Assembly: GCA_002753105.1 (NCBI GenBank)
Contig: PDZT01000073.1
Coordinates: 1-16,517, forward strand
DNA length: 16,517 nt
Origin: Deltaproteobacteria bacterium YD0425bin50
GTDB taxonomy: Bacteria > Desulfobacterota > Desulfobacteria > Desulfobacterales > YD0425bin50
Direction of reading: 5' to 3'
This document shows, in pieces, positions 12,153-13,010 of this stretch. How positions within the stretch are numbered: the stretch's first letter is position 1; every line of letters begins with the position of its first letter. Position numbers and translations under genes: made by a program. Under the pieces are notes generated by a model that was given only the letters and a program-made list of their open reading frames with translations, searched no databases and was not told the DNA's origin.

Positions 12153-13010
12153 CTAACCTGTTGAATCTGTGGTCTTAACTGTTTTTTTTGAAGATTTATC
12201 AATATCAATAATTTTTTTTCCCATTAAATAATCTTTAGTTTCATAGCGGGTAATTCCCATAAGTTTTTTAGTGATTTGAGCCATGATACTAATTTGTTTA
12301 TAAATTGATTCTATGTAGCCATACTCATGAAAGGATTTATTTAATTCGAGTTTTAAGAGTTCAGCGTATCCAAGAATAGCTTGCATAGGCTGATTTAATT
12401 CATGACATACAGCGCCTGCCATTTCGATAATGGCTTGAAGTTTTTCTTTTTGAAGTCGTTCTTGCTCAGTTTGTCTTCGAAGTTCATCGACTTCCATTTC
12501 TTTTGTAACCAGTGTAAGGCAACCTAAAGATAAACAGATATTATCCTGTAAAAATATTTCAATTTTGGCTTGATCTTTTAACCAATAGAGTTGACCGGTT
12601 GGATTAGAAATTTTATAAATTGCATCCACAATTCCTTTGAATTGGCTTTCTTCCCTAAGGCCATATCGAAGATGAGTTAATTCTTCTTGAGTAAGCGTAT
12701 CTACTGATAGATTGCTATATTCCCTGCGGTCTTTAACACTATTTTTAAATGATTCTGCGATATTGGTATAATCACACTTTAAAAGCTCAATAAGACGTTT
12801 TCCGGTAAATTCATACCAAATCGTTTTTTCTCCGTTATGCCATGCTGAAATATAGGAAATGCAAGGATTGGTAGTTTGATCAAAAGCGTGATAACACGTA
12901 ATACAGTGCGTTACATATGATTTTAACGCTTCACTATAATTTCCGGTAAGTATTTTACCACAATAATGTGGAGCCACAAGAGGATTATAAGATATATCGT
13001 TCATATTCAA
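12153..13010 (-). CDS. Orphan HisKA (DHp) domain protein lacking an HATPase_c domain, with a Cys-rich N-terminal domain
   Basis: The H-box AGAVCHELNQPMQAILGYAELL (FixL-type HELNQP) is preceded by a coiled coil. Only about 40 aa follow the DHp domain, with no N, G1 or G2 boxes. N-terminal Cys cluster CGK...HCITCYH...C. The tracker start at 13010 is a TTG. An ATG two codons downstream (13004) is equally possible. Confidence 0.6.
   Translation of the reverse strand: MNMNDISYNPLVAPHYCGKILTGNYSEALKSYVTHCITCYHAFDQTTNPCISYISAWHNGEKTIWYEFTGKRLIELLKCDYTNIAESFKNSVKDRREYSNLSVDTLTQEELTHLRYGLREESQFKGIVDAIYKISNPTGQLYWLKDQAKIEIFLQDNICLSLGCLTLVTKEMEVDELRRQTEQERLQKEKLQAIIEMAGAVCHELNQPMQAILGYAELLKLELNKSFHEYGYIESIYKQISIMAQITKKLMGITRYETKDYLMGKKIIDIDKSSKKTVKTTDSTG

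Follow-up and report, generated by a model that had tools for sequence, protein, structure and literature searches.

Introduction

Two-component signaling is usually described as a sensor kinase that works with a regulator, and proteins that carry the dimerization and histidine phosphotransfer (DHp) domain of a kinase without its catalytic and ATP-binding (CA) domain have been set aside in censuses as 'incomplete' kinases. DHp-like bundles serve as phosphotransferases in Spo0B and ChpT, and the isolated DHp domain of EnvZ (domain A) reportedly dephosphorylates OmpR-P and can accept phosphate in trans. A natural class of CA-less proteins, the 'HisKA, no HATPase' nonenzymatic histidine kinase-like proteins, was reported from Archaeoglobus and Methanomicrobia and stated to be unstudied (Galperin 2005, PMC1183210; Galperin et al. 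2018, PMC5847659). This class is named 'possible incomplete histidine kinase' in P2CS, and a phosphotransfer or phosphatase role has been suggested for it (PMC1183210, PMC5847659). Here, a bacterial gene of this architecture was analyzed. It lies at positions 12153-13010, on the reverse strand, of a 16,517-nucleotide stretch of DNA (hereafter the window; contig PDZT01000073.1, assembly GCA_002753105.1) from Deltaproteobacteria bacterium YD0425bin50.

The archaeal class and the 12153-13010 protein are alike in combining PAS/GAF-type sensors with a C-terminal HisKA domain that keeps its His, in the absence of HATPase_c, and REC-(PAS)n-HisKA variants occur too. The published reports are at census level and archaeal, and the likeness is one of architecture that does not imply a shared clade. 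The bacterial clade described here has hallmarks that set it apart from the archaeal class: an invariant Cys ahead of the His, a 20-residue tail, an occasional PilZ domain and a dedicated CheY-like neighbor.

Other described systems share parts of this design. Spo0B of Bacillus and ChpT of Caulobacter, to which an earlier reading of the sequence (the original prediction) had compared the protein, are dimeric DHp-like four-helix bundles with a phospho-accepting His and no autokinase activity, which shuttle phosphate between receiver (REC) domains, as is predicted here by analogy. The comparison holds as logic and fails in structure, because Spo0B and ChpT possess a degenerate CA-like alpha/beta domain, a non-HisKA sequence and no sensor, whereas the present protein has a HisKA H-box, a PAS-like sensor and a short tail of 20 residues. 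EnvZ domain A is likewise a HisKA-type DHp domain without CA that is said to bind and dephosphorylate its regulator and to be phosphorylated in trans. It is, however, an engineered fragment of a normal kinase, whereas the CA-less state here is natural, ancient and widespread.

The best matches in both structure and sequence are FixL-type (HPK4, 'HELNQP') PAS-kinases, such as the LOV-FixL chimeras YF1 and SB2F1 (4gcz, 8a3u), which share the order of PAS domain, coiled-coil linker and DHp domain with a HELNQP H-box. These kinases have a functional CA domain, whereas the 12153-13010 protein ends about 30 residues past DHp helix 2 and has Cys in place of Ala ahead of the His. The RetS-GacS pair (7n0e), a structural match to the C-terminal part of the protein, offers an analogy of another kind, since RetS is a kinase-like protein that acts through its DHp domain instead of by autophosphorylation. 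RetS differs in keeping its CA and receiver domains, and a pairing of the 12153-13010 protein with a kinase is without support. In the literature, no paper with 'CHELNQP' was found, and none on the bacterial clade, its tail, its Cys-His motif or its associated regulator. Writing on CA-less kinases consisted of census remarks only, plus one unrelated case, the split CheA Hik36/Hik43.

Results

A complete HisKA protein without a catalytic domain

The 283-residue form of the protein, which starts at ATG 13004, is identical to NCBI protein P0001 ('hypothetical protein HQK77_09160 [Desulfobacterales bacterium]'). P0001 is encoded on the 23-kb contig JADGCZ010000052.1 of the metagenome-assembled genome (MAG) GCA_015228675.1, where the same ATG is used as the start. 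Residue numbers refer to this form throughout, except for the Pfam HisKA range, which refers to the 285-residue form.

HisKA (PF00512) is the sole Pfam domain above cutoff (E = 7.1e-9, 36 bits against a gathering score of 26.9, residues 196-257). HATPase_c gave no Pfam match at E ≤ 1, and the NCBIfam kinase models cover the DHp region only, with no CA domain detected in the protein. The N, G1 and G2 boxes of the CA domain, which distinguish a canonical HisKA plus HATPase_c kinase, are missing; about 30 residues remain past DHp helix 2. The C-terminus consists of the 20-residue tail (I251-K270) and 13 further residues, with no degenerate CA-like alpha/beta domain of the Spo0B/ChpT type. The Pfam families SPOB_a and HPTransfase gave no match at E ≤ 1, so membership of the Spo0B and ChpT sequence families is not indicated, and no profile match to the HPt domain (PF01627) was found in the protein. 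None of the scanned libraries contained a Pfam or NCBIfam model specific for the clade with DHp domain and tail. The original prediction, of a DHp protein with an intact FixL-type H-box (HELNQP) in which a domain scan would find HisKA and no HATPase_c, was thus borne out.

The view that the gene is not a frameshifted kinase was confirmed as well. The 73-bp spacer behind the stop codon contains no CA-domain remnant and is followed by an unrelated decarboxylase gene, so that a CA domain would not fit in and no frame could restore one. A cryptic ATP-binding domain and a frameshift fusing one to the protein were both looked for, and neither was found. Frameshift and truncation were ruled out on the basis of this spacer, the decarboxylase gene next to it and the homologues that end at the same residue.

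What did not survive was the description of the protein as a fragment. A whole-protein search of 5.8 billion proteins returned 1612 matches at E ≤ 1e-3, far more than chance would give. The best ~110 of these are full-length, with 40-51% identity over 87-99% of the query, lengths of 258-337 aa and HisKA as the only domain in precomputed Pfam lists. More than 100 full-length homologues stop at the same point as the 12153-13010 protein, which shows that the gene is not a fragment. An alignment of 35 family members has a mean column identity of 53% along its entire length. A scan of one genome per species yielded 587 relatives, and the MAG labels are almost all Desulfobacterota or 'Deltaproteobacteria'. 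The protein is complete and belongs to an old, conserved family whose native architecture lacks CA. It has the features of the 'HisKA, no HATPase' class, namely a sensor, a C-terminal HisKA domain with its His, no HATPase_c and a conserved architecture.

The missing CA domain is the sole point in favor of a decayed gene or an assembly artefact, that is, a truncated kinase pseudogene. The reading frame is intact, the end position is the same in hundreds of homologues from independent assemblies, the column identity speaks for strong purifying selection over the full length, and the gene downstream is unrelated. A pseudogene is therefore hardly credible.

A module of DHp domain and tail in many proteins

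Residues 170-283 (hereafter the module) were searched against 1.84 billion representatives of clusters at 50% identity. This search returned 6660 matches at E ≤ 1e-3, and 1366 representative clusters matched at E ≤ 1e-10. The match lies at the extreme C-terminus in ~145 of the best 150 representatives, in proteins of 112-815 aa. Among metagenome open reading frames (80 loci), a stop codon follows no more than 28 residues past the module in 72 of 74. HATPase_c is absent from all 120 best matches of the module profile search, and only one of the best 150 representatives is fused to a CA domain. The inputs ahead of the module are diverse (Table 1). The module is, on these comparisons, a widespread C-terminal output device for many different sensors of the Desulfobacterota.

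The phospho-acceptor His lies within an H-box on helix 1 of the helical hairpin, as in other HisKA domains. Foldseek searches with the module model matched the DHp domains of ZraS, ERS1, GacS and CpxA, and the RetS-GacS co-complex (7n0e) was matched as well; profile matches of the DHp domain included LvrB, FixL chimeras and ThkA. Conservation was measured over 146 module representatives that are non-redundant at 50% identity and have unrelated N-terminal inputs. In these, the H-box residues are nearly invariant (C 99%, H 99%, E 97%, N 93%, Q 98%, P 100%), and within the 35 family members H201 is kept in 34 and C200 in all 35. Strong selection acts on the H-box in a lineage whose CA domain was lost long ago. 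A mere dimerization helix would not need the solvent-facing H-E-x-N-Q-P residues, so that their conservation speaks for phosphoryl chemistry. In one full-length family member (P0031), the phospho-acceptor His is replaced by Asp (CDELNQP), which may be a phosphomimetic variant or a sequencing error.

C200 probably occupies a core 'd' heptad position beside the dimer axis. This placement follows from the 3-4 hydrophobic spacing read from L189, I193, A196, C200, L203, M207, I210, A214 and L217.

The tail is conserved to a degree comparable to the H-box. Across the 146 representatives it follows the pattern I-T-x-Y-x-T-x-x-Y-x5-I-x-D, with Y254 at 99%, T256 at 92%, Y259 at 99%, I265 at 99% and D267 at 99%. 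AlphaFold2 (AF2) modeling of the module with a deeper alignment predicted two tail strands as a beta-hairpin, in a monomer model and at a predicted local distance difference test (pLDDT) score of only 55-64. When hhalign was run against canonical kinase cores, the DHp-CA linker aligned with the first half of the tail, and the alignment ended ahead of 'KIIDID'; the NCBIfam kinase models CreC, PnpS and PhoR align through the DHp domain into the tail. Among solved structures, none was found to cover the tail, as alignments end at DHp helix 2. The tail therefore probably derives from the DHp-CA linker together with the first CA strand, an origin that for the second tail strand is only plausible.

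Two kinds of stand-alone module gene were also seen among the loci L177 (2894-5408), L178 and L089. One kind, of 125-135 aa, is preceded by two other genes, for a PAS-GAF sensor and an HDOD-HD protein. The other, a subfamily of 132 aa, lies between a 59-aa HTH_17 gene and mntP.

Association of the module with receiver domains

The module is repeatedly linked to REC domains. An N-terminal REC domain with all phospho-acceptor residues kept was found in 13 of 72 module proteins, and about one third of the sampled module members are REC-fused or adjoin a dedicated CheY-like regulator. REC genes make up an estimated few per cent of such genomes, so this association looks like a clear enrichment.

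One recurrent operon, found at five loci (L092, L102, L117, L125, L130), encodes a ParA-like protein, a membrane HisKA_2/HATPase kinase and a REC-module protein in this order. The REC-module fusion behind the kinase resembles a fusion of Spo0F and Spo0B. At L052, a REC-PAS-module gene is divergent to a stand-alone copy of the sensor type found in the 12153-13010 protein.

A subfamily of CheY-like regulators (123-162 aa) provides the second kind of linkage. It is encoded 3-28 bp downstream of the module gene, or overlapping it, on the same strand in 8 of the 64 cases with enough downstream sequence. Two of these eight are weaker matches (89-92 bits), and one further copy lies upstream of a module gene. 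Clear members score 135-278 bits against each other, whereas other REC domains reach at most 94 bits, and they share the pattern KKILVVDDE...FLDLxLPGMxG...TGY...GFDDxFxKP...AFExxERW. At L096, two module/regulator pairs stand in tandem.

The DHp residues Q208, G212, Y213, E215 and L216 are common to the 12153-13010 protein and the modules adjacent to these regulators. We take these residues, by analogy with work on EnvZ and HK853, to be the predicted response-regulator specificity positions. Their agreement makes an orthologue of the CheY-like regulator the leading partner candidate.

The immediate surroundings of the 12153-13010 subfamily are less uniform. Across 25 homologous loci, any given neighbor recurs at five at most, and an adjoining REC or CA gene is seen only sporadically. 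At L004, a subfamily member starts 2 nt past a gene for a 948-aa hybrid kinase, to which it is translationally coupled. No stand-alone CA (HATPase_c) gene is conserved beside module genes in ~100 loci.

A predicted PAS-like sensor with several outputs

A PAS-like sensor domain is predicted for residues ~13-166. The AF2 model built from the family alignment reaches pLDDT scores of 84-95 over most of the stretches 11-90 and 130-170. In it, the N-cap helix spans residues 25-42, the five strands of the sheet and the helices between them span 49-166, and a long helix (168-220) then runs into the DHp domain; this five-stranded antiparallel sheet, its flanking helices and the C-terminal signaling helix are the features of the PAS superfamily. 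The top Foldseek matches of the N-terminal half were LOV/PAS domains (probability 1.0), including the chimeric kinases 4gcz and 8a3u. Pfam PAS gave no match in the 12153-13010 protein, and homologues gave PAS_3 matches below threshold only; Pfam has no dedicated model for this sensor. Conserved motifs of the sensor are Y14xG16, PYISAW55, IWYEF66, C77, DAVYK131, WLKD144 and LSxGxLTxVTKEM.

The original prediction had pointed to a Cys-rich N-terminus that might sense metal or redox state. Four Cys and three His do lie within the first 48 residues; the cluster is lineage-specific and a metal or redox site is unsupported. Its Cys residues occur in only some of the 35 family members (C15 in 16, C34 in three, C37 in ten, C48 in one), and no conserved set of three or four Cys/His ligands was found in their N-termini. 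The Pfam TRASH match is noise (E = 0.76, 10.4 bits against a cutoff of 27). A Zn or redox Cys cluster of the TRASH or Zn-ribbon type was ruled out by this poor conservation and noise-level match. The AF2 model and Foldseek place the region in the N-cap and first strand of the PAS-like domain, so the suggested search for a Zn- or heme-binding fold led to a PAS/LOV-like domain instead. A LOV or heme PAS domain was also ruled out: the flavin motif GxNCRFLQ with its adduct-forming Cys is absent from the sequence and the family consensus, and the sensor has no conserved His/Cys pair.

The conserved residues of the sensor (YxG, PYISAW, IWYEF, C77, DAVYK, WLKD) recur in 60 Desulfobacterota proteins with other outputs (Table 1). 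As judged from these shared motifs, the N-terminal domain is a modular sensor of the Desulfobacterota, and the HisKA-only end one of its outputs. In five proteins of 253-277 aa, the sensor is followed by a Cys-rich domain that looks like a small zinc-binding output.

Table 1. Coordinates and occurrence of the features described, by window position or by locus (L) and protein (P).
Feature	Locus or protein	Coordinates	Strand	Remarks
Whole open reading frame	window	12153..13010	-	285 aa from TTG 13010; 283 aa from ATG 13004; stop codon 12153-12155
PAS-like sensor with N-cap helix, residues ~13-166 (predicted)	window	12507..12968	-	AF2 model, Foldseek, shared conserved residues
Cys/His cluster (C15, C34, C37, C48; H13, H33, H39)	window	12861..12962	-	lineage-specific
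Cys77, sole conserved Cys of the sensor	window	12774..12776	-	34/35 family members; 73/86 rows of the sensor alignment, all output types
Coiled-coil linker, residues 167-188	window	12441..12506	-	last PAS strand to DHp helix 1; continuous AF2 helix 168-220
DHp (HisKA) helical hairpin, residues 189-250	window	12255..12440	-	Pfam HisKA; AF2 helices 168-220, 226-252
H-box C200-H201-E-L-N-Q-P206	window	12387..12407	-	read directly from the sequence; H201 predicted phospho-acceptor
Tail I251-T-R-Y-E-T-K-D-Y-L-M-G-K-K-I-I-D-I-D-K270	window	12195..12254	-	predicted beta-hairpin; located where canonical kinases have the DHp-CA linker and first CA strand
Spacer	window	12080..12152	-	73 bp between stop and next gene; without CA-domain remnant
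Next gene, pyridoxal phosphate (PLP)-dependent ornithine/diaminopimelate/arginine (Orn/DAP/Arg) decarboxylase	window	10799-12079		downstream of the spacer
Two-component cluster	window	4554-6789	-	CheY-like regulator 119 aa; CheC/CheX-like phosphatase 203 aa; PAS-HisKA-HATPase kinase 408 aa
REC-HisKA-HATPase-REC-HPt hybrid kinase	window	2468-4543	+	opposite the 4554-6789 cluster
Module input: dCache-HAMP-PAS membrane sensor	P0123, P0152, P0175			Pfam
Module input: periplasmic-binding-protein domain and PAS	P0156			Pfam
Module input: GAF/PAS arrays	P0248, P0142			Pfam
Module input: REC	P0121, P0238			Pfam
Module alone, no input	P0236, P0136, P0176			Pfam
PilZ domain (cyclic di-GMP receptor type) past the tail	P0156, P0238, P0223			rare
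Second, canonical HisKA-HATPase_c core past the module	P0244			rare
PAS-module-REC-GGDEF	L126	701-2467		rare; H-box altered to TAHDLNQP
ParA-kinase-REC-module operon	L092	2595-4956		ParA/MinD-like ATPase 252 aa; membrane-anchored HisKA_2-HATPase kinase ~310 aa; REC-module 222 aa; start/stop overlaps
CheY-like 'AFExxERW' regulator by module gene	L096	1381-2492
CheY-like 'AFExxERW' regulator by module gene	L143	674-1150
CheY-like 'AFExxERW' regulator by module gene	L151	8328-8729
CheY-like 'AFExxERW' regulator by module gene	L158	299-697
CheY-like 'AFExxERW' regulator by module gene	L160	448-861
CheY-like 'AFExxERW' regulator by module gene	L163	1152-1523
Sensor fused to full HisKA-HATPase_c kinase	L032
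Sensor fused to hybrid kinases with REC and HPt	L026, L036, L041
Sensor fused to GGDEF	L030, L033, L047
Sensor fused to HD-GYP	L040
Stand-alone sensor	L052, L054, L055, L080			199-204 aa
Sensor with small Cys-rich C-terminal domain '...KKIRDDKGYW...FSHGICPxC...'	L048, L050, L053, L058, L061			253-277-aa proteins

Discussion

Proposed function and alternatives

The protein is predicted to be incapable of autophosphorylation, since it has no CA domain. Its catalytic H-box is unchanged, and the module is coupled to phosphorylatable REC domains, which argues that the DHp domain still carries out phosphoryl chemistry with a receiver. We consider it modestly probable that its function is REC-directed phosphoryl exchange, with the protein acting as a signal-gated histidine phosphotransferase or phosphatase on a receiver encoded elsewhere. 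The precedents of EnvZ domain A and of Spo0B and ChpT make a phosphoryl role of a CA-less DHp domain feasible. A phosphotransferase or phosphatase role toward REC domains, already put forward in the original prediction, is the reading best supported by the 93-100% conservation of the H-box and by the REC fusions and REC neighbors.

In the mechanism that we propose, a cytoplasmic protein made of PAS-like sensor, coiled coil, DHp domain with intact H-box and 20-residue tail would act as a dimer, whose DHp domain docks a REC domain and exchanges phosphoryl groups through His201. Phosphate would be taken from a phosphorylated receiver and then either passed on, as by a phosphotransferase, or lost to water, as by a net phosphatase. 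The PAS-like sensor would gate this exchange through the coiled coil, and the tail, as what is left of the DHp-CA linker, may form part of the receiver-docking surface. The partner would be encoded away from the 12153-13010 gene, with the orthologue of the CheY-like regulator elsewhere in the genome as the leading candidate. Within this proposal, a true His~P relay is a serious possibility that falls short of probable, and a role as phosphatase only is a somewhat doubtful one. The near-absolute retention of His201 tilts slightly toward a phospho-His intermediate and the elaborate sensors toward a regulated 'off' switch; both are compatible with phosphoryl exchange. A thiol switch at C200 on top of phosphotransfer is conceivable.

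Several observations weigh against this proposal. To our knowledge, it would be unusual for large sensor arrays to feed a pure relay step, and the known phosphotransferases (Spo0B, ChpT, HPt) have no sensors. The 12153-13010 subfamily is an orphan, with no REC or kinase neighbor conserved at the 25 loci. About two thirds of the module genes have no visible REC partner nearby, on contigs many of which are short, and the neighborhoods are heterogeneous (HDOD-HD, HTH_17, cytochrome c3). The invariant Cys beside the His and a tail as conserved as the H-box are unexplained by simple phosphotransfer, and AF2 places the tail with low-to-moderate confidence. No experimental study of any clade member or of a CA-less 'incomplete' kinase was found in the literature.

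A dedicated signal-regulated phosphatase would account for part of this evidence. The DHp domain would then speed the hydrolysis of a phospho-regulator charged by another kinase or by acetyl phosphate, with no phospho-His and no onward transfer. That the module is fed by sensors as different as dCache domains and PAS arrays fits a regulated 'off' switch, and the gene pair of sensor-module and CheY-like regulator has no obvious third partner to receive phosphate. In HisKA kinases, phosphatase activity is carried by residues flanking the His, and here E202, N204 and Q205 beside it are 93-98% conserved; the isolated EnvZ DHp domain is also said to have phosphatase activity. In several kinases, part of the phosphatase activity survives loss of the His itself, so that under a phosphatase-only role His201 would be expected to be lost more often than is seen; it is present in 99% of representatives and in 34 of the 35 family members. 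Where a REC-module fusion lies immediately downstream of a kinase, the arrangement also looks more like a relay step. The phosphatase idea has been put forward for the archaeal class (Galperin et al. 2018, PMC5847659). It overlaps with phosphoryl exchange in general, as a bifunctional protein would satisfy both, and as a separate explanation we regard it as somewhat unlikely. A split kinase, in which a second protein (ATPase-only or a full kinase) supplies in trans the CA domain that phosphorylates His201 and the present protein is the sensor and phospho-acceptor half, appears very unlikely. P0244 does join a PAS-module to a canonical HisKA-HATPase_c core, the L004 family member is translationally coupled to a hybrid kinase, in L092-type operons the REC-module gene follows one for a sensor-less HisKA_2 kinase, and the isolated EnvZ DHp domain is reportedly trans-phosphorylated by a separate CA domain in vitro. 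The kinases of those operons, however, own a DHp domain and the module protein has a REC domain, which makes the ordinary kinase-to-REC route simpler. The ~100 loci with no conserved stand-alone HATPase_c gene beside the module, and the single CA fusion among the best 150 representatives, also speak against it.

The remaining alternative dispenses with phosphoryl chemistry and treats the protein as a dimeric interaction or switch module, either pairing with a true kinase in heteromers, or sequestering that kinase or a regulator, as RetS does with GacS, or employing the invariant Cys-His pair together with the tail as a site for redox or metal chemistry. The invariant C200 is predicted from the heptad pattern to lie in the helix core near the dimer axis, no known kinase function accounts for a tail as conserved as the H-box, and some members carry PilZ domains past the tail. 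The RetS-GacS DHp co-complex is among the structural matches, and a thiol switch would make sense in hosts that are strict anaerobes. Against these points stand an ancestral FixL-type catalytic H-box, H-E-x-N-Q-P, that is unchanged and not reshaped as in known pseudokinases, and a recurrent genetic coupling to REC domains with all phospho-acceptor residues, not to kinases. A metal ligand geometry is without evidence. A function without phosphoryl chemistry would account better for the invariant Cys and the tail, leaves the retention of the complete H-box unexplained, and is in our view quite unlikely.

Returning to phosphoryl exchange, a broader and more speculative extension, which we hold to be rather unlikely, is that the EMAGAVCHELNQP ... 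ITRYETKDYxxGxKIIDID module constitutes a separate, kinase-less two-component branch in Desulfobacterota. Dozens of sensors per community (dCache, PAS arrays, GAF, REC, WYEF-PAS) would converge via a near-identical docking surface on one CheY-like family, and the core Cys and the tail would make the exchange redox- or partner-gated. If true, such a branch would integrate many inputs in a novel manner, with no ATP spent at the individual sensors.

A very large, strongly conserved bacterial clade (1366 clusters at 50% identity) can now be recognized by hallmarks of its own and by the small regulator that recurs as its partner, and what was a loose annotation category becomes a system that is well delimited and open to testing. 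Should the module prove to be a gated phosphotransferase or phosphatase, then many proteins of sulfate reducers now annotated as 'histidine kinases' carry the wrong assignment, and the signaling networks of these organisms contain control points that do not depend on a kinase. For the 12153-13010 gene alone the result is modest, as it is an orphan member.

Genomic surroundings in the window

The window also encodes a cluster at 4554-6789 and a hybrid kinase at 2468-4543, which together form a two-component module of ordinary type that shows no evident link to the 12153-13010 gene. The original prediction had linked the protein to these two kinases and to spare REC domains, and this link found no support. 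They lie at least 6 kb off, behind four unrelated genes, and no kinase or REC neighbor is conserved at the 25 homologous loci. A connection with the kinases and REC genes of the window was discarded on this lack of a conserved neighborhood and because the individually examined contexts all differ. A promoter and terminator scan of the gene flanks gave background level only.

The window also holds a gene at 8276-10789, on the reverse strand, that encodes an 837-aa protein with the Pfam domains MVP_shoulder (E = 3.5e-27) and Vault_3 repeat (E = 5.7e-8), both above cutoff. This bacterial protein is homologous to the major vault protein of eukaryotes, and its gene starts 9 bp past the decarboxylase gene.

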